This document shows positions 14,801 to 40,808 of a DNA stretch of 64,000 bases, piece after piece. Numbering within the stretch: the first letter of the stretch is position 1; each line of letters starts with the position of its first letter. Below the pieces are notes generated by a model that saw only the letters and a list, made by a program, of their open reading frames with translations, made no database searches and was not told the origin of the DNA. The position numbers were made by a program, and so were the translations under genes. The stretch spans positions 1,049,812-1,113,811 of the forward strand of contig NC_092675.1 of assembly GCF_964355755.1 (NCBI RefSeq), read 5' to 3'. Source of the stretch: Antedon mediterranea (taxonomy: Eukaryota > Animalia > Echinodermata).

Positions 14801-17800
14801 AGATTTTAGGCTATACAAATAAATGGATTCATACTTGATTCAGTTTAATTTATTCAAATATCAAGTAATCAAAGTGCACAGACTTAAGCTCTATTTACAC
14901 TATCAGAAAAAGTGTTTTGCCCAAATATGGTAGTAATATGCCCAAAAATCATCATGTCCATACTGTACTGTATATGGGCACATCACATTTTTTTGTCACA
15001 TAAAGTTTGTACACAGAGCTTTATATTTTTTAATTGTTTAATTGTTTTACCAGTAGAATATAGATACATACGTATTGCAATATGGTTTCTTTGAGTAACC
15101 TTTGTAGGTCTTCAATGTCAGCTTTAAGTCACATGTTTCACATCGAAAACAGCCTTTATGCCAATACTGAAAAAAACAAACAGTTACATACTCTAATATT
15201 ATTATGTTTACTATAGGTGTTGAACAATGATAAGCGCCAGCCCGAATGATTTATCGGTTGTGATTGGTCAACTCGCTTATGTCGTGTTACGTCATTGTGT
15301 TGCATCTCTAGTGGAAACCAAGCATTACAATGAATTCCAATCATGCAATGTAAGTTCCTTCTTAAAACTATTTTCTTATAGCGCTGTATTACAAGACAGC
15401 AGTTTTTAAACTTTATAAATGCTCAGTGTAATTATGAAAATTACTAAAATTACAGTTAATATTCTACAACAAGCAGATTTTTGCAGAAAGGTACCAATTC
15501 TTTCCTGCTACTGTAGCTACCATATATTTTAAAACATACTTCTGGAAAATTTACTAAAATACAGTTAATACTACAACAAGCAGATTTTTGTCAAAATGTA
15601 CCAAATTCTTGCCTAATACTAGTTTTACAACGTAATACACTGACTTCTGGAAAAGGGATTATGAGAAGGATTAGAATAGCTATAGAGTACAAAACCTTTT
15701 GTACTATAAGGAGTCAAAGTCACCATTGTCATCAATGAAAAAACAAAGAAAAGAAAATCGGTCTGCTTTGTACTGTACATCCAGGGGATAACAACTCCCT
15801 GGTACATCTATGGCCAGTCATTTTTTTAATGACATTATACAGTATGTAAGGTAGTTGCACTGTAGGATTACTCCAGTGTTAGAAGGAAATGAACACATTA
15901 AGGCGTGGTCCGGTATTACATTTAGTCTGATCCCACACATACTATATACTGTAGTCATTCATACCTGTAACTGTACAGTATGTACCTGTATTGTACATAC
16001 TTAAGTTTAGACATTACTACAGGTATGCAAATAATGCAACAGATACAAAATAACTATGTTTAAACTGAGATTGTAATGTTATGTGTAAACATACTGTACT
16101 TCCACATACAGTGCTTGATTGTAAATTAGACACACTCAAACCTAAATTTCCTTATTTAAAGGTTCAAACTAAAAACATGCATTTGGAAAGCCAAGAATTA
16201 AATAGTGGATGTAATTTAAATACTGACAACATGAAACACTGATCATACAGTACGTATTCCTGTAGGTTATTATTTCATATACTTTTACAAAAAAGGTAGA
16301 GCTAATAACATTTTTCAATTGGTACAATCATAGAGATATTATAGTGAACTATATCTATGGTACAATGAATACAGAACTTTAATAAGTTTAAACAAACTTA
16401 AAGGCTTTTGCATTGAGTTTATTTACTTTTTCCGCTCCAATGCACACATTACTGACTCCATCCACAAATGGGCGTTTATTTGAATAAAAACAGTCACTGT
16501 TCATTTTGCATGCATGGCTAAGTTTTCCTTATTAGGAAATTAGGAGACACAAAAAGAGTTTTGATTAAATAGTCATTTATTTATATCTTATTACTAACTA
16601 TATTTTATTTGGTATTTTACTATAATTATAGTATGGAGAAGTAAGTTATTTCTCCATGATTATAGTAATCTGTGGTGGTAAATGACTGAATTATTAATCA
16701 GTTCATGGAGTAAAGATTCTTTACTCCATGATCAGTTGTATGACAAGTTTTGAGTAGTTTAAATCATGGAGTAAAGAATTCACAATTCAAGACCAAGAAT
16801 TTATCTTTTTGTTTGACAGGATTTGCCAATTTTTAACACACTGTTTATCAGTCCAGTTTTCTCTTCTACTCTATGATTTTTATTTATTCTTTACTGTAAC
16901 AATTTAAATTACAAGTGCATTCCTCATTAGTTGTGTTATTTGGTGCCAATTTTTCCTTACTGTATTCTTTCTAATGTTAACTAATATTATAAATAATAAT
17001 ATTATATAATTATCATTTAAATAAGAATTGTATACTGTATTCAATTTAGTTTAGCAGGCTATACAGTATTGTTTTATAGAACTCAGTCAGTATTCGCCCT
17101 ATTTTCAGATTCACGTGTTATGGCCCATTAGGTCTACAGTGAAATAAATGGCCTACTGTACAGTATTCAGTGACCCTGTGAAACTTTCTTTAAACGACAT
17201 CATTCCTTTTTAGACTACAGTCAGTACAGTAGTAATAGCTCAAGTCATATTTTGGTGGTTCTTCCTGAAATATGACAATTAATAACTTTCAGAATATTTG
17301 GTACAAGATCTACAGTATGAATTAGTGCAAGGATATCATTTTTCAAGAAAGGATTGTCTTATTAGAAAAGTGACTGTATTTCAGGAAGTTATTTCTATAG
17401 TGATTCATCAAGTTAACATTTCTTATTACTTATTAGTATAAAGCATTTCTCAGCATGTGCAAAAATAAAAAGGACCAAACGATGGAAGGCTTGTTAGTCA
17501 CTCTAACTTGGCCTAATCCATATTCATTAAAAAGTAGCACATCAATTCTAAAACTAAAGTGACTCGGACTATATTCGTTAATTATTGTTTTGATCTTCCA
17601 GCGATCTAAATAATATTAATTATTAATAAGTGTCTGATCCATGCTGCCCTGTTGTATGTAGAACACAGTGTTTTTTTAATCTTTACTCCATGTTTTAATT
17701 AATGAGGGGTATATTTACTCTCTTGTGTAATGATAGTAATCTATTCTACTAATCAATTCATACTACTGACTGTATTACACTATACAGCATTATTATAATC

Positions 17801-18971
17801 AATCTAGGCCTACTAGCAAAGAACTTATAACACAAGAATCTCCTGTTCGTCCGAAGCGCGTAACAATTTCGAAAGGCATTGTGGGATAGAATAGAGCTAT
17901 GGGTGGCGTCATTGTGAGCCATGGAGTAGGGCGCCCGCATCAAATTAGAAAGTCAAAATCATAGAGGGGATCTGGTATTACTCTAGGGGGGGGGGGGGGG
18001 GTAGAGTAATTGAATAAGGAGTAGGGCGCCCGCATCAAATTAGAAAATCAAAATCATAGAGGGGATCTGCTAATACTCTAGGGGGGTAGAGTAATTGACT
18101 TCCTAGTTTGGAGGGGGCGCTGCTCCATGCTGTGAAATGGCGTCGCCCAGTTTGACCTTTTAACCCTGTACTTCCGATACTGTGTTTTGAATGCAAATTG
18201 AAGAACAGGAGATTCTTGTGTTATAAGTTCTTTGCTACTAGGTACAGTAGTAGAGTAAACTTACTTAGGCCTAGTATAACTTATACTAATAATACTAAAA
18301 AGGCCTATATATTTTATAAGGCTGGGAATTATAGATTGGGCTAACTTAAAAAAAGTTATTCATAATTAATCATTTATATTTAGGCTACTAGGAAATTAAA
18401 TACACAGTACTAGTAGTTTTCCAATATCAATCCAGCCTATCAATCCCTCGAAAATGCGGGAGCTTTCACTTTTTATGTGTAAGTAAGCCGAGGTCAACAT
18501 CGCCGGGAATCAAAAGGTTTCACTTCCTGCACGCTCTACACTCTCTCTGCACTGCTAGAGCCAATTAATTGTAGGCCTAGGCCTAAGCATAGCTGCATAG
18601 ATAGGCTTAGACTTTCCGGACTTCTGTTCAAATATAACTTTAAAAAACTAATCTACTATATTACTATCCATCTTTAATTTCTTGTATTAAATTTATAAAA
18701 AATATGGAATATTGTTTTGTTCAAAAAATCATAAATTTTGATCTACAAATAAGAAAGAATTTGTGATTTAAGTGCACGTAATACAGTGATCAAATCTAAA
18801 CACAACAGAGGAGGCAAGGACACGACGCCCTGCTGCTGCCACGACATGCTGATACAGCGCCGCGTCCCAGCAGCAGCAGGAAGAAAAATAAAACACACCT
18901 ACCTTGTCCAAAACGGACATTTTTTCCATTGGATAAACTGTTTTACTACACTTAGCACATTGTGGATTCAT
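8826..18971 (-). CDS. LASP1: LIM and SH3 domain protein (LASP1-like): LIM, nebulin repeat, Pro-rich linker, SH3; 6 coding exons
   Basis: Phase-compatible exons: 18971-18903 ([23 protein letters not shown]), 15166-15072 ([31 protein letters not shown]), 13854-13770 ([28 protein letters not shown]), 13076-13028 ([16 protein letters not shown]), 9586-9342 (Pro-rich), 9002-8826 ([24 protein letters not shown]...DDGWMEGRV...[11 protein letters not shown]). Confidence 0.93.
9644..9709. mobile_element. 66-bp palindromic mini-element, Mutator-like
   Basis: GGGTGTCTAGAAAACTCAGAT...ATCTGAGTTTTCTAGACACCC inverted repeat. Flanks TTATTATAT / TTACCATAT match at 7 of 9 positions, consistent with a decayed 9-bp TSD. 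The termini resemble the nested GGGTGTTTCGAAAC element. Confidence 0.6.
9768..10411 (+). repeat. 65-bp minisatellite, ~10 nearly identical copies, LASP1 intron 4
   Basis: Unit GAG(A/G)GAATA(C/T)TAACTGAATTATTCTCAGTGTG(T/C)GAGTAGGTTGATATCAAATGTAGAATGAGACT with period 65 (CTGAATTATT at 9781, 9846, 9911...). Confidence 0.95.
10676..13011 (+). mobile_element. Non-autonomous Mutator-like (MULE) foldback element, copy 1 (2336 bp), nested/composite
   Basis: Perfect 9-bp TSD ATAAATGAC (10667-10675 / 13012-13020). Termini are inverted arrays of 15-16-bp GGACAACTACCCCCC subrepeats. The left end is duplicated (restarts at 11384). No transposase ORF. Confidence 0.9.
11626..12068. mobile_element. Inner 443-bp Mutator-like foldback element nested in the 2.3-kb element (mirror copy 20487-20929)
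   Basis: TIR GGGTGTTTCGAAACTAGAGA...TCTCTAGTTTCGAAACACCC, internal GGTCTCCCTTTTCGTAT subrepeats, and its own 9-bp TSD GTTTTTAAC (11617-11625 / 12069-12077). Confidence 0.88.
13360..13490 (+). repeat. 32-bp minisatellite x4, LASP1 intron 3
   Basis: CATCAAGGTCTAGATCATGGAACATTCCAAAA repeated four times. Confidence 0.92.
14886..15021. mobile_element. Short palindromic interspersed repeat family (AAGCTCTGTCTACACTATCAAA...TTTGATAGTGTAGACAGAGCTT), MITE-like
   Basis: Related copies or fragments at ~930-1035, ~2110-2170, ~50747-50845, ~53819-53842 and ~60510-60640 share the termini and the CCCAAATATGGTAGTGATATG / GGGCACATCAC core. Confidence 0.7.
15775..16737. mobile_element. Cluster of four 20-31-bp CA..TG hairpins, each with a perfect 7-bp TSD (P-element-type footprints)
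   Basis: 15782-15801 (TSD GTACATC), 16329-16359 (GTACAAT), 16632-16658 (ATTATAG; first base is T rather than C), 16704-16730 (ATCAGTT). Confidence 0.75.
17816..18235. mobile_element. MITE with perfect ~33-bp TIRs in LASP1 intron 1
   Basis: GCAAAGAACTTATAACACAAGAATCTCCTGTTC ... GAACAGGAGATTCTTGTGTTATAAGTTCTTTGC, flanked by TACTA on both sides (TSD could be TA or TACTA). Contains an internal ~95-bp tandem duplication. Confidence 0.85.
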
Positions 18972-19543
18972 TTTGAATAAGCCTAAAAGGTGGATATTTA
19001 AACGACAATAAACTTCTACAGTAGGTCTCCAAAAGTCCCAGACCTATAAAATGTACGTTGTTTGGTTTCCAATACTTCGCAAAAATTGTTGAAAGTGGGT
19101 TTGGTTTCCGCCTTCAGAGATTGGTCACGTCACACACTGTTATTGTGTACACGCTTCTGCACAACAAGGGAGTCGGAAGTCGCCAAAAATCGTGTAGTGA
19201 ATTTAACTAAAATTTGGGGGACATGCTCAATACTTTTTAGGCCATCTAAAAAACTAAAGTTATTCATTTATTGAACCAGGTCGTTTGTGACCTTACTGAG
19301 GGAAATAATTATACACATCAAAAGGCTTTGTTTTAAAAAAGGTTTTTTTTTTAATGGTCCTGAATTAATGAAAAATGGAAATACCGTAGATATTTTTTCA
19401 CGGTTCTACGATAGACCTATATAATAATTAATAATATCGTAAATATGCATCAAAATATGTAAATTCAAGGTTGTTGGTGATTATTCAACTTCAGATTTTT
19501 TTTATTTTCCGCGCTTTTTAAAACTACCGTATATAACAACAGC

Positions 19544-21851
19544 CGTATCCGGATATTCACCCCCTGGACATTTACCCCCCGGACAACTACCCCCCGGACA
19601 ACCACCACCTGGACCACTACCCCCTTAGGACAACTACCCCTTTAGGACAACTACCCCCCGGACAAATACCCCCCGGACAACTACCCCCTTAGGACAACAA
19701 CCCCCTTAGGACAACTACCCCCTGGACAACTACCCCCCGGACAATTACCCCCTAGGAACAATTACCCCCCGGACAATTACCACCCGGACAATTACCCCCC
19801 GGACAATTACCACCCAGAAAACTATCCCTTTAGAACACCCTAACCACCCAGACCATTCAACAACCTGACTCTGCAACAGTGTATAATAGGAATTAATAAC
19901 TATATTTTAATTCGTTACTTTGACGAATTACTATTCATTATTGTAAACAAAAGTAAAAGATTGAACATAAATATAGCCTGGTATAAACTGAAGATCGTCA
20001 CACATGATCATAGGATAGTCGAACGTATTATATAGTACTCCCTGTATTTACTGTAAAGACTGGGATCGCTAATAATAATAATAATTTTTGCGTCAGGACA
20101 ATGCTTCGATAACCACTGGTCTTAAAAGAATTAATATTTGTCTCAAATTTGTCATATATGTATTTTTGTACACTTGAAGAATAATATCACTTTTGATATT
20201 TGACCTCAATGTTCACTCACCGAATAAACGTCGATCTTTAAATAAATTCCCCTCAAATAAACGGTGACCATGTCACTCCCATGAAACATCATATGGAATA
20301 ATCGGCGTCTATTTCCATTAGATTATACCCCCTCCCATTGAATAAACAACTTTCTTCCAATAAATGTCCACCTAAAAACCACCTAAACAATAAACAGCCC
20401 AGGCCGTTTTTTCAATAAATACGGTACTTTAAATCTAGCACATCTAGGGTCTAGCGTGCTGTTAAACAGAATAATCGGTTAAAAACGGGTGTTTCGAAAC
20501 TAGAGACCCGAGACCAGAGACCAGAGACCCAATACGAAAAGGGAGACCTAAATATACGAAAAGGGAGACCCACGTACGAAAAGGGAGACCCCACTATACG
20601 AAAAGGGAGACCCCACTATACGAAAAGGGAGACCCTAATATACGAAAAGGGAGACCTAAATATACGAAAAGGGAGACCCAATTATACGAAAGGGAGACCC
20701 AAATATACAAAATGGGAGGCCCAAATATACGAAAAGGGAGACCCACTATAAGAAAAGGGAGACCCACTATAAGAAAAGGGAGACCCCACTATACGAAAAG
20801 AGAGACCACACTATACGAAAAGGGAGACCCTAATAATATACGAAAAGGGAGACCCAAATATAGGTCTCCATTTTCGTATTGGGTCTCGTTTCAGGTCTCT
20901 GGTCTCGGATCTCTAGTTTCGAAACACCCGTTAAAAACAATTTCATTTTTACAGAAACCGGTCCTATATATTTGTCTACTTTTGGATGGGGGGGGGGGGG
21001 TAGTTGACCGGGGGTAGTTGACCGGGGGGTAGTTGTCCGGGGGTTTGTTATCCTAAGGGGGTAGTTGTCCTAAGGGGGTAGTTGTCCGGGGGTAGTTGTC
21101 CTAAGGGGGTAGTTGTCCGGGTGGTAAACATCCGGGGGGTAACTGTCTAGGGGGTAGGTGTCCTAGAACCGAAAAGGGAGACCCCCTATACGAAAAGGGA
21201 GACCCCACTATACGAAAAGGGAGACCCTAATATACGAAAAGGGAGACCTAAATATACGAAAAGGGAGACCCAATTATACGAAAGGGAGACCCAAATATAC
21301 AAAATGGGAGACCCAAATATACGAAAAGGGAGACCCACTATAAGAAAAGGGAGACCCACTATAAGAAAAGGGAGACCCCACTATACGAAAAGAGAGACCA
21401 CACTATACGAAAAGGGAGACCCTAATAATATACGAAAAGGGAGACCCAAATATAGGTCTCCCTTTTCGTATTGGGTCTCGTTTCAGGTCTCTGGTCTCGG
21501 ATCTCTAGTTTCGAAACACCCGTTAAAAACAGATGATTTCATTTTTACAGAAACCGGTCCTATATATTTGTCTACTTTTGGATGGGGGGGGGGGGGGGGG
21601 TAGTTGACCGGGGGGTAGTTGACCGGGGGGTAGTTGACCGGGGGGTAGTTATCCTAAGGGGGTAGTTGTCCTAAGGGGGTGGTTGTCCGGGGGGTAGTTG
21701 TCCGGGGGGTTGTTATCCTAAGGGGGTAGTTGTCCTAAGGGGGTAGTTGTCCGGGGGGTAGTTGTCCGGGGGGTAGTTGTCCTAAGGGGGTAGTTGTCCG
21801 GGTGGTAAACATCCGGGGGGTAACTGTCTAGGGGGTAGGTGTCCTAGAACC
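19544..21851 (-). mobile_element. Non-autonomous Mutator-like foldback element, copy 2 (2308 bp), inverted relative to copy 1
   Basis: Near-identical reverse complement of 10676-13011, differing mainly in subrepeat number and G-run length. It has its own distinct 9-bp TSD AACAACAGC (19535-19543 / 21852-21860). Confidence 0.92.
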
Positions 21852-28576: not shown

Positions 28577-31500
28577 TCACTTTTTGGCAAAGTATAATTT
28601 TTTAGTTAACATTGACATAAAGCATGGTACCTGCTTCTTGCCAATCATTGCAGGATCCCTACAGGCCTTTACTGACCGCTGAGAAACAATATGGTTGACC
28701 AACAGAAGCATGTCTGTAAATTCCATCGTCGTTCCGTAGCGTTCCATGACAAATGAAAGAGCTTGAATGAACCAAGAACCATAGGCTGTGTCTCGGTGCG
28801 AGTAATATCCTACAGTCAATGGAAATAGCGAAAATCATTTTAAATAAAAATAATGTAACTACGTATAATATATAATATATACATTGATGAAGGCGTGTTG
28901 CCCGAAAGCTCTGCTAACTTTTCTGGCTGTTTTACTTTATCGTTTTGATTTAGCTTTTCGCTTTTATTTTGAATCTCCATTGAGATCCAGCCACTGATAC
29001 CCACAACATTGTCATTTTTTCAGTATTTTGCCTTTGAATTTAAGTATATGTATAATGTTATTGTTAACATATTGTTTATAGTCAAGCCACTAAGTAAAAC
29101 AACAATGTGTGCTTGCCCTATTCAAGGGATATTTAACTTATGAAGGAAAAACTAAGAGATATTAGTTTTAATTAAAAAGCTCAACAAGAAACATATTGAA
29201 AATTAGGACTGTATCCAATGGTGTAACGTATGGGGCAAAGGTCCCTGGTTTAGCACTCCTAAGGTCCTTTAACTCGTTGCATTGGGGCTGTTCATACTCT
29301 CTGGGGCCCCTAGGATCTCACCACTGTGCATATCTCATTAATGCATATGATTTTAAATTGATAGGTAGAGGTTTACCTTCAGCTACAGAGTATGCTAAAA
29401 GAAAGTCAGCACCAGCAGGTACAGTGGGCCTTGGGCCTGCATCTGCTACATCAACATCCATTAACTCTACATCATCAAGACCATCCATAGCATCTATACC
29501 TATCTCATGGTCCTCACCACGACATGCCTTTAAAATAAACAATAGTATATATTAAATTGTTGTTAAAGTTTGTGCTCCAAATTTTAAACCTCATATCTAT
29601 CATTGTGTAATTGCATATTTAAGAACAATATTAATTTTCATTAATGTTTATTTATGGAGTATTGAGATGTACTAATTTACACAACCTCTGTAGTGGATGA
29701 CATAGTTAAGAAATCATTTGTCCACAACTCTATACATGTTTCCAACTCATCATTTCAAAGATAGTTTGTTTTATTCCTTCTGTAAATATAACTTGTTTAC
29801 TAATTTCATTATAAATCTTCTACTAACCTGTATTAAAAAAATCTTTGGTTTTCCAACTAAACTTTTGCACTTTTCTCCTCTAAAACGGTCGATGAGTTCT
29901 TGTAACTTAAGTACACCATCATAAGCATAAATGACATCGTTATCACCATGAGTAAGGAAGACGCATACAAAGCAATCTGAATCTGCATGACTCTGTAATG
30001 ACACTAAAAATACAAATTGTTGTAAAGTAAAATTTCTGATATTAAAGATTTGATTTCTAAAGGAAAATTCTTAAAATCATTAAACAACCAGTAATTACTG
30101 TATCTATGCCCGGTATAGGACATGTCTTCTCAGGACTATAAACCGTAGGCCAGTGTACAAATCTAGCTTATGTGAACTTTAAAGAACCTAGTACATCTTA
30201 CGAGACAAGTAGGGGTTACCCCGGTGTACTAGTACATCACAGGCACTGATCACAACTGGGCCCTCTGGGAGACCAGTCTTTGACTGAAGAAGTCGCTCAG
30301 TATAAATAAAATATTTCAATTTTAATACAATTTAAAAAAAAACACTTAATTATTAAAATAATAGTATGGATGATGAACACAAACAATGATTGTTTTTTCC
30401 CGATGGATTAATGAAAAAATTGCCAACTTGTAGTACTAGTGTCGTACCATTTTTTAGGGCATCCCATAACTGCACGACTGTTAAATCTTGATGAACTTTG
30501 ACATCAAATTGAAGCTTTGTGAGTCGTTTTTTCAAGTTGTCGACATCATGTTGAGTTCCTCGTCTACGTGGCATTTGCGTGCCCAGATGAAATTCTTCAT
30601 GATTGAAAATGACAGCAACACCACGTTTTGGATGAGACATATTGTAGCTTAATAAATTCTTGTCAATTCCCTGTAAAATACTAAATAATAATTTATAAAA
30701 CATGTTATATAAATGTTTATTTGTTCAACAAGATGTATAATAGAGACCGTATAATATAGGCCTAGTATATAGCCTCTCTCTAGCTAGGGCTAGTACTGTA
30801 GTGAAATACCCCTCCGCTTAATGGTTCGGTCCACCGAGTGACCCGAGGTCATGTGTGCCGTCCCGGAGAGACCTGCGCTCTCTTGAGACTTGGACGACAT
30901 AGGATAAACACGGGATATAGACACCGCACATCGGAGGTACACTGAGTGTTTTACCGTGTTCGATATCAAGACAGAGACAGCATACCGTAGTATTTACTGT
31001 TGACAAAGGTTGGGTGATGACCTCCCAAGAGACCAGCCCACCACGACAGGTAAGCCACACTACTTTCTGCTAGTCTGATTATACTCTCGGCCGTTTTACA
31101 ACATTGGCGCTGCGAGCAAAAACGTAAGCGATTAACGCCAAGTTAATTAGTTTTGGCATAGAGTTCGTTCCCACACCTGTGGGGCGACAACGGTTCGAAT
31201 TTCCCGCTGCATTTTCACAATTCCGCACGGTGTAGACTCACCGCGATTAGTGAATTTAATAAAGTGCACGGATTTTTTGTTCGACTCTGTAGGCGCTACT
31301 TGCACTGCGTTATTGCTTTTGTACCGTAACTTCATCAAGTGAATCCCATTGAGAAGTTAGACTGACAATACAGAAGAATTATAGACTGAGTATTATTTTG
31401 TTGTGGGTTTTGTTGATATAGTAAAAATATAAACTATAATAGAAAGAGTTATTTCAGTTGTTTTTAGTTCAAACGTTGTGGAAATTGATTCAACGGGCGA

Positions 31501-34500
31501 CTCCTCCATTGTGTGTTCTTTTGAATTCCTAAGACACCTGTGGGCGGATTCCGCGCATTCCATTAGTCTCATTTGCATATCGTTTTGTGTTTAGCAACTG
31601 TGATACATTTTAATTTACTATTGTCTTTCAGAAATAGAGGTTATTTTGAAACTTTGTTTATTACGATATTTTACCATTACATTTTACGTATACTCTTTGT
31701 AAATTGGGATACGTTTCCTGTGGGGTAGAATAGGTATAATCAGCAGTCAATATATACAATTTGAATCCCTATTGATATAACACTTTGGTTTGACCTTGAA
31801 TTGTTATTTAGAGTGCACTTGATTACATAAATATGCCTCCAAAAGCCAGACTGATATCTATAAATTTCTGCGACGTTACAGACTTACTCCTGGTGCCTGG
31901 TATAGGTGCTGCACGTGCTCAGAAATTATTAGACTGGAGAGGCCGTTATGGGAATATCACCCCGGTTAACATTGGGGATATAAAGGGTTTGGGGAAAACC
32001 AAATTTTCCAGATGGTTCGACTTCACCCCAAATCCTAAGCGGGGAGGGATTATCACCACAATGAACGCTGTGACATACTTAGTGGATGCACGGAACGAAA
32101 CTAGGGCTGCCAGTTTAAATCCCGCTAACGGGGACTCCACGGTTCACCGTGAGCCTCGGGGAGATGAACGGGACCGATCGTACTTCCCTGCCAACCCGGG
32201 ACCGGGACACGAATTTAGATCCCCTACACTCCCGGAGGTCCCCTTACGTTCCGAGGTTGAGGAAGACCGCCCTCTTTGCGATGGTAATGGTACACCATTT
32301 AACCCGTTTGTAGGTAGCCCGGAGGGAGTTGTCCCATCCCATATGCCCGGTCAATACTCCTATGTGGATTCCTGGGGGGAACCGGAATATCGGGACACCC
32401 CTCCTACACTTTCATCTCACGGTACACGAGTAACATCTACTGTTAGTCCTGGAATTACGCCTGTGTATTCTAGGGCCCAGGCTACTCCTCAGGCTGAACA
32501 GAATGTGAGGGGTAACACTCCCGTGGTTACTGCTAGCACCACGTCGGCGTATACCCGGCCGCACACTCCCGTCTCTCATAGGCCCCAATACTATAATAAC
32601 AGAGGGGGTCACCCACCAGCAAGGCGGTCATCTAGAGAGGTACCTCAGAGACGCCAAGTTGATTGGGCGTATGGAAACCATGACCGTACGTATTACGGTG
32701 GCAGCGAGAGTGAGGGAGAAAATGCCCAACCATCATTTCACACCGACCACGATGAATTCTTGGCGTCCTTCAGAGAGTTCTTACGGTCCACCGAGCGTAG
32801 GGCTCCTAGACGACAACAACAACAACAACCACATTTTAGGTCAAAGGACATTCCTAAAAATCTGTCGTTTAGCGGGAGGGACAATTGGGTTTTATTTAAG
32901 CAGCGGTTCCTCAACTATGCTGACGAATATGGCCTCAGCGATAGGGGAATGCGCGACGCTTTTCAATGGTGCGTTACAGGTATTGCGGCAGATTACTTCA
33001 TAAACCTAACTCATATGAACCGAGATTTATCTTTCAGGCATATTATAGGGGCTTTTGACGAGCGCTTCAAGGCTGAGGAATTACCTGAGGTCTTGCAAGT
33101 GAAGTTGGAGGCGGCCAGTCAACAGGAAGGTGAATCCATTGAAGATTGGAGCGACAGAGTACTCACCCTAACGAGGAAAGCTTTCCGTGAACTTCCTAAA
33201 GACTGGATTCATCGGAGAGCAGTCGTGAAATTTTGCGTGGGTTGTCTCGATGCCGAGGCCGGTCAGTATATTCTACACCAGAATCATACTACTTTGGTGA
33301 GAGCACTGGCAGCCTACGAAAAATACATTGGTTTTAGGGAACTTTGCAATCGAGGAAGAAAGGGGCGACCAAGGGAGCAGGTGAGGCCGCACGTACGATT
33401 CGCAACTGTGCCTGACCGACGACATCACCGGTCGCCGCCCTCGTATACAATAGAGTCTTCTGAGAGTGGAGAGGAGGTAGAGGTTCGACAGGTTGGAAAG
33501 GGTTGGACTCGCCCGGCGAGCCTCGAGAAACCTGTTGTACCTGGGCCTGTGGACAGGAAGGATCAATACGATCGCAAGGGTCCTCCACGGCCGACTCCAC
33601 CTCGCACCGAGACCAGGATGGAAGCGGTCGAACGACAAGTGGGGCAGTTGAACACGAACGTCGACCAGTTGACGACCAACGTCGGCCATTTGATGACCAG
33701 GTTTGACAGTCTATTAACGGCCTTGCATCCAACACCTACATCACCACCATCGCCGGGTAGACGGTACTCAACCTCGCCCCCGAGAGTGTGTTTTGAGTGT
33801 CGAGAACCGGGTCATTTCAGGAAGGACTGTCCTAAGCTAGCCCGACAAGTTCGACAGATTGAGTCGGAAGGTGACCAGTCGTCAAACTAGACCAGGTTGG
33901 AAGCGCAGCCCAGCTCCCCAACCTGTCACCTCGTCCGGGCTCAGGTCTTGTAACGGGTAACAAAGGTAAGTATAAGGGTAGTAAGAATAATGGTAAGGAT
34001 AATAAGAGTATTGACAATCCCCGTGATAATGGTGATAACATTAATAGAAATATTAGTCACATTAACACGGGTCAAGATAATACTAATAATTCTTTCATTA
34101 CTATGAGTAATCTTTCAGAGACAACGCTGCGATCAGACCTGCTCCCAGGTGGCGGAGACCCACCCGTGGGCACTACTTCGACGACCAACGAATCGTTGGA
34201 ACCTCGGGGTGCTGCGGGGTGGACTCGGCCAGTGGAAGTAGCCGGCACCGCAGACGAAACGGAAGAACCAATCGTTATCAATCGAGTACGATCCAACCGA
34301 GCCTTATACACCACGGTCTACGTGAATCAGACTGAAGTAACAGCTGTGGTGGACACGGCTGCGGACCGGACAATACTCTCGGATAACGTATACTCTCGTT
34401 TAGTTCCTAAACCACCGATTGTGGCCAAGCTTAACTTTACCCTAGCGGGTAGAGGGACATCGATGCCTGGTTACAAGGTGGGACCTATTCATTTTAGGCT

Positions 34501-37500
34501 AGGGTCGGAATCCTACACCGAATTTTTCTATGTAGCACCGATTCACGATGAAATGCTGTTAGGTCAGGATTTTCTGGTAAAAAATGGGGCCATGGTAGAC
34601 TGCGGACAACTGCTGTTAACTGTAGGTGCAAGCACAGTCTCTCTGCGGGGAAATCGGGAACCCGAACCCCCGAGAACCGCTCGTGTTCTTGTCGCAAAGC
34701 GTAGAGTGATACCACCTCACTCTGTAGTGCACGTCCAATGTCAACTTTCACCTAACCATTTACCTTTACCAGATTTCTTTATAGATCCAGAGATCAACGC
34801 TTCTGTGGCAATTCCAGCTACCACACATCGAGGCCTGCGTATTCCGCACCTGTGCGTGGTCAACACATCGGACATGTACGTCACCCTGAAACAGGGACGG
34901 AACATTGCAACAGCCACAGAAGTAGATCAGGTGGAGGAGGATGGAAAAGCCAACGCTGCCGATGTATGTTCCGCAGCCAGTCATGATAAACCTGTCTCGT
35001 CGGCAGTACCCATGCATCTGGTGGACATGCTAGAAGCGTCCCGTGCTGATCTCTCCGACTCCGAATTCGCACAATTGTCTTCTCTTATCATTCAACATCA
35101 AGAAGCCTTCGCTTCGCATCAGTTCGATATTGGTACGTTCAAGGATATTGAGCACACCATAGATACGGGCAAGGCTCCGGCTATCAAGCAACGGCTCCGG
35201 CCAACGCCGATTCGCTTTGCTGGCGAAGAGGAGAAGGAGATAAAAAAGATGCTCCAAGCTGGAGTGATTCAACCCTCCATCTCAGAGTGGGCATCACCAC
35301 CAGTCCTGGTGCGGAAGCGTGACGGCTCCGTGCGCTTCTGCATAGACTATCGAGCACTGAATAACATCACCATCAAAGATGCCTATCCGTTGCCGTTAGT
35401 AAGGGACTGCATAGATACGTTATCTGGAAACATCTGGTTCTCCAAGCTTGACGCCCTCTGGGGATACTGGCAGATCCCGATGAAGGAGGAGGACCAGAGG
35501 AAAACTGCGTTCATTACCAAGCATGGTTTGTATGAATTTGTCAAAATGCCATTTGGTCTTTCAAACTGCCCGGCTACGTTTTCCCGTGCCATGGGGTTAG
35601 TGCTACGAGGTTTGGTATGGGACGTCGTACTAGCATTTCTGGACGATATCGTCGTGCTGGGAAAAACCTTCGAAGATCACCTGAACAACTTGACCACTGT
35701 CCTGGGGAGATTTAGGAATGCTAACCTTAAACTAAAACCCAAAAAGTGTGTTTTTTTTCAGAGAAAGGTAGAATTTCTTGGACGCATCGTCGGTGACAAC
35801 TCTTTCACAGTCTCCGACACGGATGTGGAAGCCGTCCAGAACTGGCCCACGCCAACCAACCTGCGAGAAGTACAACAGTTTCTTGGTCTGGCTAACTACC
35901 ACCGGGAATTCATCAGTTCTTTCGCCAACCTGGCTGTCCCGTTGTACCGTCTGACTGAGAAGGGAGTCCAATTTGTGTGGGGAGAGGACCAGCGGATCGC
36001 TTTTGAATCTCTCAAGAACGCATTGGTTCAACCTCCTGTCTTGACGTTGCCCAACATCCGGGATGAATTCATACTAGATGTGGACGCATCGGACCACGCC
36101 ATCGGCGGTGAATTGCTGCAGATGCAAGAGGGTAAGGAACGAGTAATCGCCTACGCTAGCATCCGGCTCACCGCCGAACAGCGCAACTACTGCACAACTC
36201 GTAAGGAGTTGCTGGCCATCGTGTACATGACCCGGCATTTCCGCCACTACCTGCTGGGCCAGCCTTTCCGGGTAAGAACCGACCACAGCAGTCTAACTTG
36301 GCTCCTTAATTTCAAAGGTCCCCAAGGACAACTAGCTCGTTGGATGGAGGAGCTTAGCCAGTATACCATGGTAGTCGAGCACCGGCGAGGTAGGTTACAC
36401 ACCAATGCAGACGCGCTTTCTCGTCTTGGGGGGTGTGAGCACGGCACCATCACTCCGGACGACCTGCCCTGTGGGGGTTGCACCTACTGCCGTAGGACGC
36501 ATGCGAAATGGGCACGGTTCCGGGAGGATGTCGACGACGTCGTACCCATCTCCCAGATTCGACAGGCAAGTAGAGGAGTGGGTAGTGAGGGGTTTGTATG
36601 GGACCCGGGTGGTCGAGCGACCGTGGAAGTAACCCGGGCTCCCAATGGATTAACGAATATTTGTGTATTACAGGATGGGGATATGGTCACATCGATTCAG
36701 CCGGAGACACCGACCGCCCGATGTTGGGGGTACTCCGTCAGCGAACTCCGGGACCAACAACGTAAGAATGCTGATCTCCAGCCTATCCTGCGGTGGTTGG
36801 AGCGCCAAGACGACCCCTCAACCAATGAGCTGTTCCTCTTCAGCCCGAGCACGAAGTTCTTTTGGTTGAATCGAGACCGTCTTCATCTGTCCGACGACGG
36901 CATTCTGTTCCTGAAGCACGAAACGTCGGGCGAGCGTCTTTTGGTACTGCCGAGGGGTTTGCAACTAGTTGCCCTGCGACTACACCACGACCTCCCTTCG
37001 GCTGGACACCAAGGCATCGCCCGAACCCGTTTTCGTCTTAAGGAAAAGTTCTTTTGGTATGGTATGTCCAGGGATATCGGAAGGTATGTAGCCAACTGTG
37101 AAGTGTGTAACCGCAATAAGAAAACCGGCCGTAAAGCCCGGTATCCCTTAACAAACTTTCATGCAGGTACACCCATGGAACGGGTACATATCGATTTTCT
37201 TGGGCCTTTGCCTAAAACCAACATGGGCAATGTATACATTCTCATGATGGTGGACCAATTCACTAAGTGGGTTGAAGCGAGCCCACTTCCTTGTCAGACA
37301 GCGGAGGTAACGGCCCGAGCCGTGGTAGGGAATTTCTTCTCCCGGTTCGGGATGCCTCTGGAACTCCACTCTGATCAGGGGAGTAATTTTGAAAGTGAAT
37401 TATTTAGTTCTTTATGTAAAGTTTTACAGATCCACAAGACCAGGACCACCAGTTACCGACCCGCCGCCAACGGCCAGGTGGAGCGATACAACCGGACCCT

Positions 37501-40500
37501 GATGGATGCTGTGAGATGTTTTGTAGGCCGGCAGCAGAAAGATTGGGATGTGTTTCTACCACAGCTAACTGGAGCCCTCCGGGCGACGGTGAATCGCTCG
37601 ACGGGGTACACTCCCAACATGCTGATGCTCGGACGAGAGATCAACCTTCCGGCCGATCTCATGTTTACAGCTAGCGACCCGCCAACTGCACGAGCACCCG
37701 ATAGCTACGTGACCGCTCTCACACAATCAATCCGTGAAGCACACGACATAGCACGGGCTACTCTGGGGGAAACGCAGCGACGCATGAAGAGAGACTACGA
37801 CCTCCGAGTCCTCTCACGCCCCTACGACCGTGGGGATAAGGTATATGTGCTAGATAATAGCCAACCGAAAGGTAAATGCAAGAAGCTGTGTCCTCCTTGG
37901 AAGGGACCCGGCATCATCATCCAAGTTATCTCTCCGGGACTGTTCCGGGTCAAGCTGAGGAACAAAGTGATGGTTTTGAACCATGACAAGCTCAAGCCCT
38001 GTCACGACCGGCAGCTCCCGCGGTGGATAACTAACTATCATTTATCTCTTTCAGATCCGAGCGAGGAGAACGTCGACGATGCGCCGGGAACGCTATACTG
38101 TTCCTGCCGGAAGCCCTGGGCTGGGTCATTCATGATTCAGTGCGATTACTGTGACGTTTGGTACCATGGCGCCTGCGTGAATGTCTCTCCTTTAGACGCT
38201 CTGAATATCGACCGCTACAAATGCGCTAATTGCAGAGACTGAGTATCCGAGCTGAAGCGATTGTAGGGTACCATTATTTAATTGTCTCCGTATTTTTGTA
38301 TCTCCATAGGTTGTTTTCGGCGCAACCGACATCCGGTTGAGACAACAACGGCAAGTCAATGGACGGTGGCGTGCCCTGTCGGGAGAGGAGCAGGAGGAAA
38401 CCCGGCGGCGACTACTCGCATCTGAACCTACCCTAGCCCCAACGGGGGAGGTCAGTGGAGATGTGACCGGCGTAGATACTGCCCTCGAGTCGACGCCAGA
38501 ACCACCACCATCCGGCGCGCCGACCGAGGATTCACGCCCACGGCGTAAGAACCCGTGCGTGTTTCCGGGATGTAACTTCGAGGCTGTGCACAACATGAGG
38601 AGGCACGTGTGGTCCCACCACCTCCCCTCATGTTTTAAGTTACCATCGACTCCGCAAAAAATACAGACCAAGCTCTGCCTGCTGCGGAAGTACGCCGTGG
38701 AAATATTGGGTAGGCCGGAGTCCACTTTGGACGACCTGGTCACCCAGCTGAATGCGGAGAGGGCTGTTGGTCCGCATGTAGGCGTCATCGACCAGAGGAC
38801 ACTGGAGATGATGTCCGAGCTACAAGCGGCGATCGGAGGTGAGCCACCTGAGGGATTTAACCTTGTGCCACTCAACCATCCAGCGGCCCTAATCCATTGG
38901 CGCTACATGGTAGCGATGGCCCAGCGGATGGACATCACTAAGATGAGCCAGCTAGCCGCCGAAGCTGAGGCCGAGAATCCCCTCGCCCAGCCCGCCGAAG
39001 CTGAGGCCGAGACTGGCCGCGCTCAGCCACCAGCCACCAAACGTAAGACCGTAAAACGCAAGAGGAGGCTCGGGTCACCGACCCCCTCCAGGCGGGAGAA
39101 GAAGATGGTGCGGACCACGATGAGAGCGTTCGACGCCCACTTCCACCCGGACCGTTTGCGCTCTTTTCTGAGGCTGTCTCCTCGAGCCACACTGATGGAG
39201 ACCTTGCTAGCTGAACCAGCTGGAGCCCAGACAAAGCCGGTAAGACCTGTTGGGGGTGTCGCCATCTTTTGCGATCCTCCCTCTTACCCTTCAGCGGAGG
39301 AGATTCATCGCCTCCGGCGGGAGGGGTATGAGGTGGGGGTCGGGGTGCACCCCAAGAAGGACGTCTCGCCTGGTCAACTCTCCCGACTGAAGGCCTTGGT
39401 GCGCTCCGGCGCTACCCGGGTGCTCGGGGAGATCGGCTTGGATCACTCCGTTCCGGTAGCTGACTGGTTCAGGCAGGAAGAGATGCTGCGGTGCCTCCTG
39501 GCACAGGTTTTCTCACCTCGACACCATCTGGCGATTTGCCTGCACCTAAGAGGCAGTCGCAACGATCCGACGGCGGAGACGTGTTATCAGAACTGCCTAA
39601 ACATCTTGCAGATAGCACGGGTTCCAAGATGTGTACGCATTCTACTGCATAATTTCTCATCGACTGTGTTAATGGCCGATAGGTTTAGGAGTGTTTTCCC
39701 CCTGACCTATTTCAGCTTTACACGGTCGGTGGAGGGCTTCAACGAAGAGCAGAAGGAAGCGTGCCGACACATCTTCCGCATGGATGACCGTCGCCTGCTA
39801 CTGGAATCAGATGGGCCCCACTTTGCTCCTCCGGGGCAACGAGTGGGTGCACCACATCTGCTCCATCACACCGCAGTAGGTAGTCGGAAGGATCTTAGGC
39901 CAGGACGCCGAGCAAGTTCTAGACTTGACCCGGAAGAACGGCCGAGATCTGTTCCTCATGGTGTAGAGCCGACCATTCCGGCGGCCTACCAGAAGTTTTA
40001 AGTTATTTTATTATGTTATTTTTTGTAAGGTGCCAGAAGATGCACCAGATTCAGTTATCTTAGCGTTAACCAAAAGTTATTGTTTTATTTTACAGCATGA
40101 CCACCCGGGCACCGGCCCTGGCCTTATAAAATCGGGGGAAGTGTAGTGAAATACCCCTCCGCTTAATGGTTCGGTCCACCGAGTGACCCGAGGTCATGTG
40201 TGCCGTCCCGGAGAGACCTGCGCTCTCTTGAGACTTGGACGACATAGGATAAACACGGGATATAGACACCGCACATCGGAAGTACACTGAGTGTTTTACC
40301 GTGTTCGATATCAAGACAGAGACAGCATACCGTAGTATTTACTGTTGACAAAGGTTGGGTGATGACCTCCCAAGAGACCAGCCCACCACGACAGGTAAGC
40401 CACACTACTTTCTGCTAGTCTGATTATACTCTCGGCCGTTTTACAACAGTACTAGTAGTAGCCTAGCTAGGCTAGGCCTAAATGCTAATTATTAATTTAC

Positions 40501-40808
40501 TATTATTATAGACCTAGCCTAGGTCTATTAGTCTATACAGTATTACTATTATTACTATTAGTTTATCAGTTAGCAGGTATTTACCTTGGTACGTCAGAGG
40601 AAGTAGAATAATCAGGCATTAGTCCTAGGCCTGGTTGAACATTCCAACTACTGGCTGTGGCCTCAGACGCTGGGGTTTGATACCGACTTCTTACCGTAGA
40701 TGGCTGTTGTTGGTTGCTCGACGACGATGAATGAATGGAAGGACGAGACGATGCAAACAAAGCATCGTTTTCTGTTATGTGATTATCGTTCTTTGATTGA
40801 TCTGCCAT
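28577..40808 (-). CDS. CASP6: Caspase-6-like effector caspase, 5 coding exons; intron 1 hosts the LTR retrotransposon
   Basis: Exons 40808-40695 (or -40585 with the alternative acceptor at 30680), 30670-30448, 30003-29828, 29527-29377, 28809-28577. Motifs [32 protein letters not shown]|ACRG (catalytic QACRG), [26 protein letters not shown] and [17 protein letters not shown] are characteristic of caspase-6. Confidence 0.88.
28884..29025 (+). repeat. Interspersed repeat starting with a degenerate minimal hammerhead ribozyme (Penelope/retrozyme-like); second copy 63145-63296 on the minus strand
   Basis: (T)TGATGA-AGGC-GTGTT-GCCC-GAAA-GCTC-TGC, followed by ~120 bp homologous to the reverse complement of 63145-63262. 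Confidence 0.55.
30105..30310 (+). mobile_element. SINE-like repeat fragment (related minus-strand copy ~56560-56700)
   Basis: Shared core GGACTATAAACCGTAGGCCAGTGTACA...ACTTTAAAGAACC..ACATCTT..GAG..AGTAGG resembles the conserved central domains of metazoan tRNA-derived SINEs. Ends in an AATAAA/A-rich tail. Confidence 0.5.
30797..31103 (+). repeat. 5' LTR (307 bp)
   Basis: TGTAGTGAAATACC...CGTTTTACAACA; identical to 40142-40448 except GGAGGTAC vs GGAAGTAC. Contains TATA-like GATATAG (~30913), ATG at 31017 and splice donor CAG|GTAAGC at 31049/31050. Confidence 0.97.
31105..31118 (+). promoter_or_regulatory. Primer binding site, probably tRNA-Ser
   Basis: TGGCGCTGCGAGCA one base after the LTR, complementary to a tRNA 3' end ...UGCUCGCAGCGCCA of the serine-tRNA type. 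Confidence 0.75.
31833..33890 (+). CDS. Gag (685 aa): N-terminal ComEA-like helix-hairpin-helix domain, capsid-like core, coiled coil, CCHC zinc knuckle
   Basis: [46 protein letters not shown] (two HhH motifs); [14 protein letters not shown]...[14 protein letters not shown] (retrotransposon Gag/MHR-like); [14 protein letters not shown]. Confidence 0.9.
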   Translation: MPPKARLISINFCDVTDLLLVPGIGAARAQKLLDWRGRYGNITPVNIGDIKGLGKTKFSRWFDFTPNPKRGGIITTMNAVTYLVDARNETRAASLNPANGDSTVHREPRGDERDRSYFPANPGPGHEFRSPTLPEVPLRSEVEEDRPLCDGNGTPFNPFVGSPEGVVPSHMPGQYSYVDSWGEPEYRDTPPTLSSHGTRVTSTVSPGITPVYSRAQATPQAEQNVRGNTPVVTASTTSAYTRPHTPVSHRPQYYNNRGGHPPARRSSREVPQRRQVDWAYGNHDRTYYGGSESEGENAQPSFHTDHDEFLASFREFLRSTERRAPRRQQQQQPHFRSKDIPKNLSFSGRDNWVLFKQRFLNYADEYGLSDRGMRDAFQWCVTGIAADYFINLTHMNRDLSFRHIIGAFDERFKAEELPEVLQVKLEAASQQEGESIEDWSDRVLTLTRKAFRELPKDWIHRRAVVKFCVGCLDAEAGQYILHQNHTTLVRALAAYEKYIGFRELCNRGRKGRPREQVRPHVRFATVPDRRHHRSPPSYTIESSESGEEVEVRQVGKGWTRPASLEKPVVPGPVDRKDQYDRKGPPRPTPPRTETRMEAVERQVGQLNTNVDQLTTNVGHLMTRFDSLLTALHPTPTSPPSPGRRYSTSPPRVCFECREPGHFRKDCPKLARQVRQIESEGDQSSN
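33881..33925 (+). promoter_or_regulatory. Probable -1 ribosomal frameshift signal joining gag and pol
   Basis: The pol frame is -1 to gag and open only from 33875 (after TGA 33872) through to ATG 34103. G_TCA_AAC_TAG is followed by the hairpin CAGGTTGGAAGC...GCTCCCCAACCTG. Confidence 0.7.
33884..38242 (+). CDS. Pol: aspartic protease, RT, RNase H, integrase, C-terminal PHD finger (first ATG 34103)
   Basis: AVVDTAAD (PR), [22 protein letters not shown] and LAFLDDIVV (RT), [26 protein letters not shown] (RNase H), [38 protein letters not shown] (IN), WKGP, then [31 protein letters not shown]...YKCANC (C4HC3 PHD). Confidence 0.96.
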   Translation, partial: KLDQVGSAAQLPNLSPRPGSGLVTGNKGKYKGSKNNGKDNKSIDNPRDNGDNINRNISHINTGQDNTNNSFITMSNLSETTLRSDLLPGGGDPPVGTTSTTNESLEPRGAAGWTRPVEVAGTADETEEPIVINRVRSNRALYTTVYVNQTEVTAVVDTAADRTILSDNVYSRLVPKPPIVAKLNFTLAGRGTSMPGYKVGPIHFRLGSESYTEFFYVAPIHDEMLLGQDFLVKNGAMVDCGQLLLTVGASTVSLRGNREPEPPRTARVLVAKRRVIPPHSVVHVQCQLSPNHLPLPDFFIDPEINASVAIPATTHRGLRIPHLCVVNTSDMYVTLKQGRNIATATEVDQVEEDGKANAADVCSAASHDKPVSSAVPMHLVDMLEASRADLSDSEFAQLSSLIIQHQEAFASHQFDIGTFKDIEHTIDTGKAPAIKQRLRPTPIRFAGEEEKEIKKMLQAGVIQPSISEWASPPVLVRKRDGSVRFCIDYRALNNITIKDAYPLPLVRDCIDTLSGNIWFSKLDALWGYWQIPMKEEDQRKTAFITKHGLYEFVKMPFGLSNCPATFSRAMGLVLRGLVWDVVLAFLDDIVVLGKTFEDHLNNLTTVLGRFRNANLKLKPKKCVFFQRKVEFLGRIVGDNSFTVSDTDVEAVQNWPTPTNLREVQQFLGLANYHREFISSFANLAVPLYRLTEKGVQFVWGEDQRIAFESLKNALVQPPVLTLPNIRDEFILDVDASDHAIGGELLQMQEGKERVIAYASIRLTAEQRNYCTTRKELLAIVYMTRHFRHYLLGQPFRVRTDHSSLTWLLNFKGPQGQLARWMEELSQYTMVVEHRRGRLHTNADALSRLGGCEHGTITPDDLPCGGCTYCRRTHAKWARFREDVDDVVPISQIRQASRGVGSEGFVWDPGGRATVEVTRAPNGLTNICVLQDGDMVTSIQPETPTARCWGYSVSELRDQQRKNADLQPILRWLERQDDPSTNELFLFSPSTKFFWLNRDRLHLSDDGILFLKHETSGERLLVLPRGLQLVALRLHHDLPSAGHQGIARTRFRLKEKFFWYGMSRDIGRYVANCEVCNRNKKTGRKARYPLTNFHAGTPMERVHIDFLGPLPKTNMGNVYILMMVDQFTKWVEASPLPCQTAEVTARAVVGNFFSRFGMPLELHSDQGSNFESELFSSLCKVLQIHKTRTTSYRPAANGQVERYNRTLMDAVRCFVGRQQKDWDVFLPQLTGALRATVNRSTGYTPNMLMLGREINLPADLMFTASDPPTARAPDSYVTALTQSIREAHDIARATLGETQRRMKRDYDLRVLSRPYDRGDKVYVLDNSQPKGKCKKLCPPWKGPGIIIQVISPGLFRVKLRNKVMVLNHDKLKPCHDRQLPRWITNYHLSLSDPSEENVDDAPGTLYCSCRKPWAGSFMIQCDYCDVWYHGACVNVSPLDALNIDRYKCANCRD
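38310..39966 (+). CDS. ORF3: zinc-finger-like and basic N-terminal region fused to a TatD-family metallo-nuclease; probable 1-nt frameshift at ~39877 in this copy
   Basis: TatD motifs in order: [46 protein letters not shown]. The C-terminal TatD-like helix [25 protein letters not shown] lies in the +1 frame (39880-39966). The ORF is preceded by a polypyrimidine-AG acceptor at 38308-38309. Confidence 0.85.
40127..40141 (+). promoter_or_regulatory. Polypurine tract
   Basis: AAAATCGGGGGAAG immediately precedes the 3' LTR. Confidence 0.75.
40142..40448 (+). repeat. 3' LTR (307 bp)
   Basis: Direct repeat of 30797-31103 with one substitution found; followed by TSD GTAC. Confidence 0.97.

Follow-up and report, generated by a model that had tools for sequence, protein, structure and literature searches.

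How is a gene translated that lies directly behind an in-frame stop codon and has no start codon near its beginning? This question is raised by the third open reading frame (ORF3) of a Ty3/gypsy retrotransposon in Antedon mediterranea. We analysed a stretch of 64,000 nucleotides (NCBI RefSeq assembly GCF_964355755.1, contig NC_092675.1, positions 1,049,812 to 1,113,811 of the forward strand), hereafter the window, in which the element is complete and occupies positions 30,797-40,448. Its ORF3 is predicted to encode a TatD nuclease. The initial annotation of this DNA proposed that ORF3 begins inside the 5' long terminal repeat (LTR) and is spliced in frame across gag and pol, giving an env-like subgenomic mRNA dedicated to the nuclease. 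The spliced message is supported by the sequence and the LTR donor is the best single reading of its origin, although a donor in gag competes with it. The features on which the argument depends are the following.

38310..40001, + strand: ORF3, 563 codons, with the TatD domain
38243..38309, + strand: spacer between pol and ORF3, 67 bases, T-rich, with a branch-point-like TTAAT (A at -28), 41 AG-free bases and a pyrimidine tract
30797..31103, + strand: 5' LTR, 307 bp, TG...CA ends, one base unlike the 3' LTR
31017..31049, + strand: proposed coding part of exon 1, ATG and 10 codons; the peptide has a mean hydropathy of -1.75, is hydrophilic and is no signal peptide
31047..31055, + strand: LTR splice donor CAG/GTAAGC, 54 bases short of the LTR end, in phase 0 with the ATG at 31,017
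31017..31073, + strand: upstream open reading frame (uORF) in unspliced RNA, 18 codons, stop at 31,071-31,073
31105..31118, + strand: primer binding site (PBS), TGG start, one base past the LTR
31104..31832, + strand: leader, no ATG in the 728 bases from 31,105 against 13.6 expected, two strong acceptor-like sites (31,292 and 31,631)

The start of ORF3 poses a clear problem. The acceptor AG (38,308-38,309) lies inside the in-frame TAG at 38,307-38,309 and no ATG follows early, as initially annotated, and the frame is open for 563 codons from 38,310. In approximate splice weight matrices, of which the acceptor matrix gave the one real host acceptor only -1.2, this acceptor is tied for the best of the 617 AG sites in the element, and one as strong occurred in 137 of 5,000 shuffles of the surrounding 131 bases. 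As a sequence signal, an acceptor therefore stands between pol and ORF3, as it does in env-type spliced mRNAs. Readthrough or frameshifting from pol into ORF3 was ruled out, since pol is in another frame, ends 67 bases earlier and is followed by the additional stop.

The first ATG of ORF3 is codon 96 (38,595), which is preceded by three out-of-frame ATGs and falls between the Cys and His of a zinc-finger motif that is invariant in 35 of 35 aligned proteins. The first 12 codons of ORF3 contain no ATG, CTG, GTG or ACG. Residues 6-29 align with P0001, a 37%-identical crinoid relative, at a score of 61 that none of 2,000 shuffles equalled, and the other two frames of ORF3 and the in-frame stretch upstream of the acceptor gave chance-level scores against P0001. 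Because ORF3 is conserved from codon 6 and its first ATG lies inside the invariant motif, it needs an upstream exon. We compared the contigs of four of five runs with the window; no run is recorded as RNA, and contigs drop rare forms. In three deep runs from one sample, contigs of sister copies cross the pol-ORF3 boundary without added sequence, so the layout is not a deletion in a single copy. We consider it highly probable that ORF3 is expressed from a spliced subgenomic message through the acceptor at 38,309.

The protein itself is a predicted nuclease. ORF3 contains a DIRL-type motif (codons 6-11), a C-x4-C...H-x4-H motif (83-104), a basic cluster (244-253) and the TatD domain (274-521), which matches Pfam PF01026 with an E value of 1.7e-19 and has YcfH as its best solved relative. 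The TatD metal site keeps six of six residues (H277, H279, E374, H412, H447 and D501; HxH followed by Glu, His, His and Asp), and the protein is predicted to be TatD group II, the HxH type. The structure model best matches TatD structures with a TIM barrel, with a mean pLDDT of only 48 and values of 60-86 in the barrel part. ORF3 has no transmembrane segment, its top 19-residue hydropathy being 1.0. Nuclear import is suggested by the basic residues clustered at 244-253. TatD enzymes act as 3' exonucleases and as apurinic/apyrimidinic (AP) endonucleases, the HxH motif is defined among them (PMC10085689), and TATDN2 strips RNA from R-loops (PMC12754012). We would guess that ORF3 acts on RNA:DNA hybrids of the element or on its damaged cDNA.

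The frame of ORF3 is broken near 39,877 in the window copy, which the initial annotation omitted, and the conserved tail goes on in another frame. All metal ligands precede the break. Most sister contigs, in all four runs, are unlike the window at 39,877, and the related protein P0004 has the tail in one frame, so the break is limited to the window copy or to a minority. Synonymous changes made up 5/6 of the ORF3 variants, 13/16 in gag and 14/16 in pol, among the 40 rows shown of 576 variants, a small and preselected sample. The pattern points to ORF3 as a working gene.

Where would its start codon come from? The coordinates given initially for the LTR exon are correct: the ATG at 31,017 opens 11 codons that run in phase 0 to CAG/GTAAGC at 31,049, joining this exon to the acceptor continues in the TatD frame, and in unspliced RNA the same ATG gives the 18-codon uORF. 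As sequence, an upstream exon could thus supply ORF3 with an in-phase start codon in the manner of an env-type spliced mRNA, as could the donor in gag, which is also in phase. The donor was called a consensus one, and it is strong (7.4, compared with 5.2 for a real host donor); it ranks joint second, however, among the 561 GT sites of the element. A donor of this strength anywhere in the LTR was found in 54 of 5,000 LTR shuffles, and an ATG-led phase-0 donor of at least this strength in 3 of 5,000. RNA folding near the LTR donor was no better than in shuffles (z 0.63).

The leader adds a second line of evidence. The ATG at 31,017 is the sole ATG in the 979 bases preceding gag (16.8 expected), and the 813 bases from it to the gag start hold none (13.6 expected), a zero that was reached in none of 2,000 shuffles. 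As controls, the CAT count is normal and the lowest count among 65 host windows is 3 ATG. On the strength of the shuffles, the CAT control and the host windows, the leader has probably been scanned by ribosomes and purged of ATGs. If transcription begins upstream of 31,017, the ATG there would be the one exception in a purged leader, and it would be in phase with a strong donor. Of 13 poly(A)-like hexamers tried, the LTR contains only GATAAA, at base 107, ahead of the donor at base 253; by inference, use of it would place the ATG and donor in U5 and not in R. Taken together, we regard the LTR exon, with its ATG at 31,017 and donor at 31,049, as the likeliest source of the ORF3 start, with a probability of roughly 60%.

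Related elements show how this arrangement may have arisen. A profile search returned 159 clusters at E values up to 1e-30 and 551 at 1e-10. Crinoids, scallops, a sea star and a brachiopod supply the named relatives, whose annotation is that of invertebrate proteins, either uncharacterised or YcfH-like; two crinoids have the closest proteins, Antedon (85% over 41% of the query) and Anneissia. In many relatives (P0006-P0154), from bivalves, sea stars and a brachiopod among others, ORF3 has a start of its own and opens with a conserved helical domain some 110 residues long, behind which comes the DIRL-type motif. A scan of 46 long proteins gave no Pfam match for this domain. A profile of it matched 42 of 153 proteins, nearly all at the extreme N-terminus, with 23 of the 42 coming from the 24 proteins used to build the profile. 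The DIRL-type motif occurs in 28 of 88 zinc-finger-bearing relatives, compared with 112 of 4,400 shuffles. The domain is encoded in none of the element's six frames, nor elsewhere in the window, whose 2,084 frames gave at most 3.5 bits, and it is missing from six crinoid proteins tested, four or five of them possibly partial. In a TatD tree, the window protein forms a long branch with P0001, P0002 and P0005 (100/100), nested among domain-bearing relatives with moderate support (84-88), so the loss of the domain looks derived. The element proteins have their own branch against 13 bacterial rows (100/100) in this tree, which holds no eukaryotic host TatD.

A scan of genomes for related loci, of which the best 80 were kept, gave one useful locus, L009, a single decayed copy with the same integrase-PHD end (57% identical). 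It has a strong acceptor, ranked 2 of 313, which lies 107 bases past the pol stop and is followed one base later by an ATG of its own; the N-terminal domain is present. The acceptor at the same place indicates that the acceptor is an old feature. The single 234-base LTR of L009 has no donor (best score -3.2), so the LTR donor is not family-wide. Conservation in related elements, to which the initial annotation had appealed, thus holds for the acceptor and fails for the donor, in one relative that has its own ATG. Since L009 keeps the acceptor, has its own ATG and lacks an LTR donor, and the crinoid branch lacks the domain of about 110 residues, the LTR start of ORF3 looks derived. The locus itself (L009:1241-6451), an animal-type gypsy element, shares with a mariner-like fragment a contig that was binned as Sedimenticola, probably through contamination from a host; the contig repeats its own first 2,976 bases.

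Relatives of the element were absent from the metagenome contigs scanned and from the viral contigs scanned, the viral scan giving only 8 distant TatD matches. No longer fused proteins were found among 7,987 candidates, which is a weak test. An atlas search with ORF3 residues 1-270 gave no match, and one with the TatD domain gave TatD clusters. The TatD-carrying gypsy clade is widespread and apparently unpublished; no paper on TatD in retrotransposons was found in the literature searched, which did not cover subscription papers or Repbase.

Several observations weigh against an LTR start and give room to other readings. The initial annotation described the ATG as the first one after a TATA-like box; the ATG stands, but the box is weak and TATAAA is absent from the LTR, so the ATG at 31,017 would lie in the RNA only if transcription starts upstream of it. 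The transcription start site (TSS) is not fixed by a consensus TATA box, and if it lay downstream of 31,017 the ATG argument would be void. The LTR donor might instead be joined to one of the two acceptor-like sites in the leader, one of which ties for the best score. In P0001 and P0002, the closest annotated relatives, a Met coincides with the DIRL-type motif or lies no more than 9 residues from it, and these proteins may use their own start. The lack of an LTR donor in L009 and the frame break in the window copy point the same way. The 15 joints listed out of 25 do not include 31,049-38,310, although run X1 holds a spliced host junction; they come from contigs only, where rare forms are lost, so this speaks neither for nor against the splice. 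The element's best-scoring donor (33,965) is not in the LTR, and the donor in gag is in phase with ORF3. The donors that compete with that of the LTR are as follows.

33378..33386, + strand: gag donor CAG/GTGAGG, after gag codon 516, phase 0 with ORF3
33963..33971, + strand: top donor of the element, AAG/GTAAGT, 75 bases past the gag stop, not in phase with ORF3 from any ATG-led frame
31121..31129, + strand: weaker donor-like site just past the PBS, score 2.5, no in-phase ATG

The acceptor might be used with a non-coding first exon if the TSS lay downstream of 31,017 or if the donor were the one past the PBS or that at 33,965; translation would then start at codon 96 or at a non-AUG codon and give a shorter protein. 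The layout of L009, an acceptor with an ATG one base on, resembles this, and no clear TATA box fixes the TSS. Codon 96 would, however, split the invariant zinc-finger motif behind three out-of-frame ATGs, codons 6-29 are conserved, and the early codons offer no good near-cognate start; we consider this reading unlikely. If ORF3 were instead spliced onto Gag through the donor after codon 516 (33,380), a Gag-TatD fusion would be packaged in particles. This donor, in phase 0 from the gag ATG, scores 6.9 against 7.4 for the LTR donor and is reached by 33 of 1,000 gag shuffles, and first exons derived from gag have precedents in idefix-type env, which is spliced to Gag (PMC12992720), and in Cer1 CERV (PMC10309623). 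On the other hand, the donor is a Gln-Val codon pair that occurs several times in Gag, so coding alone could give it, and a fusion does not account for the ATG and donor of the LTR. BLASTP matched none of 153 related proteins to the element Gag or Pol, and a capsid family is missing from all 46 long proteins among them, both weak tests as most proteins were called on unspliced DNA. We regard the fusion as rather improbable.

ORF3 could also be a relic that was silenced when it lost its domain and start, with the LTR ATG and donor there by chance or in another role, such as suppression of early polyadenylation or leader splicing. The frame break at 39,877, the loss of metal ligands in some crinoid relatives (P0001) and the missing junction among the joints shown, again contigs only, would fit a relic, and the foamy virus donor does serve poly(A) suppression (PMC3694450). 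The complete metal site of the window ORF3, most sister contigs, which differ at the break, P0004 with its tail in one frame, and the mostly synonymous variants listed all argue against it, and the shortened N-terminus is itself conserved across crinoids. This leaves the relic with only a slight chance.

Run X1 contains spliced RNA, as one contig joins two caspase exons at the GT-AG borders of an intron, and X1 also has an unspliced contig across the ORF3 acceptor. An X1 contig that ends at 38,338 was considered as a splice branch (38,337 expected); it is one base off and a variant explains it equally well, and it was not counted. The X1 element contigs were likewise not counted as proof of transcription, since there is no silent control stretch.

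With the LTR exon as the source of the start, the following mechanism can be proposed. Transcription would begin upstream of 31,017, and the 11-codon LTR exon would be joined to the acceptor behind pol to give the ORF3 mRNA. The splice would drop 7,260 bases including the PBS, gag and pol, making the message unprimeable for reverse transcription. In unspliced RNA the ATG at 31,017 would open the short uORF, which ribosomes may bypass or after which they may reinitiate. As to history, the relatives' ORF3 would be spliced and have its own ATG and the 110-residue N-terminal domain; the crinoid branch would have lost the domain, and the start would now come from the LTR. As to function, we guess at a nuclear, zinc-finger-tethered 3' exonuclease or AP endonuclease that aids the element's nucleic acids, and not an envelope. 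In its fullest form, the nuclease gene would have lost its first domain and start and recruited a start in the LTR upstream of the PBS, so that one ATG acts as a switch between a nuclease made from spliced RNA that cannot be reverse-transcribed and, in unspliced RNA, a uORF that holds down Gag-Pol; selection would act on the LTR as a coding exon and the nuclease would be needed in the cycle. We hold this account only tentatively, at somewhat less than even odds. If true, an element gene depends on the LTR for its essential first codons, and nuclease output is tied through splicing to the loss of the primer site. The comparison with relatives, with their acceptor, own ATG and 110-residue domain, shows a possible origin of the LTR start.

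The ORF3 message would work like an env subgenomic mRNA, but ORF3 is not an env gene. This expression strategy has close precedents, which makes it less surprising. In ZAM- and Beagle-type errantiviruses, splicing gives the env-F mRNA a short first exon that encodes a peptide and lies upstream of gag (PMC12992720; bioRxiv 10.1101/2023.08.03.551782). These are likewise Ty3/gypsy elements whose ORF3 has no start of its own and depends on a short upstream coding exon. They differ in that the window ORF3 is a nuclease without a transmembrane segment or signal peptide and its exon lies wholly in the LTR. The signal peptide and transmembrane segment of the errantiviral F-type envelope are lacking here, ORF3 being TatD and the exon-1 peptide hydrophilic. 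The donor of Springer lies 43 bases past the LTR (PMC13097621). A donor upstream of the PBS was described initially as unlike the usual retroviral arrangement; it is unusual, but foamy viruses offer a precedent. Foamy virus has its major donor inside the LTR (R region), upstream of the PBS and in both LTRs (PMC3694450). It is a retrovirus and not a member of the Metaviridae, its donor is called unique among retroviruses and acts as a poly(A) suppressor, and the accessible text mentions no LTR-encoded start (PMC3694450).

Other gypsy-like elements carry a third gene that is not an envelope. The ORF3s of the rotifer elements Juno and Vesta encode a DEDDy exonuclease and a GDSL esterase, and such ORF3s typically come from spliced messages (PMC5408684). 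Juno and Vesta are gypsy-like with a captured nuclease in the env position, whereas the fold is not a TatD TIM barrel and the accessible text maps no junctions (PMC5408684). CERV of C. elegans Cer1 is a non-env ORF3 of a gypsy element that is spliced to upstream coding exons and gives a nuclear protein, but those exons come from gag and it has no nuclease domain (PMC10309623). The TatD group II proteins YcfH, YjjV, TATDN2 and TATDN3 share the metal site of HxH with Glu, His, His and Asp (PMC10085689); the element proteins differ in their separate branch from the bacterial rows and their extra zinc-finger region.

The remaining anatomy of the element and its surroundings is as follows.

40142..40448, + strand: 3' LTR, holding a copy of the ATG and donor
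30793..30796: target-site duplication GTAC, second copy at 40,449-40,452
40134..40141, + strand: polypurine tract
31833..33890, + strand: gag, with an N-terminal helix-hairpin-helix match (below the Pfam cut-off), weak capsid matches and a CCHC knuckle
33875..38242, + strand: pol, -1 frame, with protease, reverse transcriptase, RNase H, integrase and a C-terminal PHD finger
30681..40584, - strand: host caspase intron, GT-AG, 248 bases once the element is subtracted, with the element antisense inside

The two LTRs, 307 bases each with TG...CA ends, differ at 1 of 307 bases; the element is young. Gag is followed by a pol in the order protease, reverse transcriptase, RNase H and integrase, as in Metaviridae, and the LTRs, target-site duplication, PBS and polypurine tract are present. 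The family is multi-copy, as contigs of the four runs fill 30 of 30 bins, with many variants and LTR ends elsewhere. The GTAC duplication sits within a palindromic stretch rich in CTAG. In runs X2 and X3, which come from one sample, GTAC again follows the LTR ends found elsewhere, which suggests a target-site preference. The N-terminus of Gag (31833-32030) matches Pfam HHH_3 at an E value of 4.7e-5, below the cut-off and unusual for Gag. The PHD finger at the integrase C-terminus (38099-38239), present in L009 too, is a possible chromatin-targeting module. Eight codons ahead of the gag ATG (31809-31832) there is another in-frame TAG with a phase-0 AG, outside the top 20 acceptors. A gag-only message could arise from the best donor of the element (33963-33971) and a pair of strong acceptor-like sites (40029-40095) that shortly precede the polypurine tract. 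Elsewhere in the window, positions 10676-21851 hold two near-identical composite repeat blocks in inverted orientation, with arms of 1,457, 610 and 257 bases that are 100% complementary. The exons in the roughly 6.5 kb between these blocks presumably belong to a LIM-domain gene.

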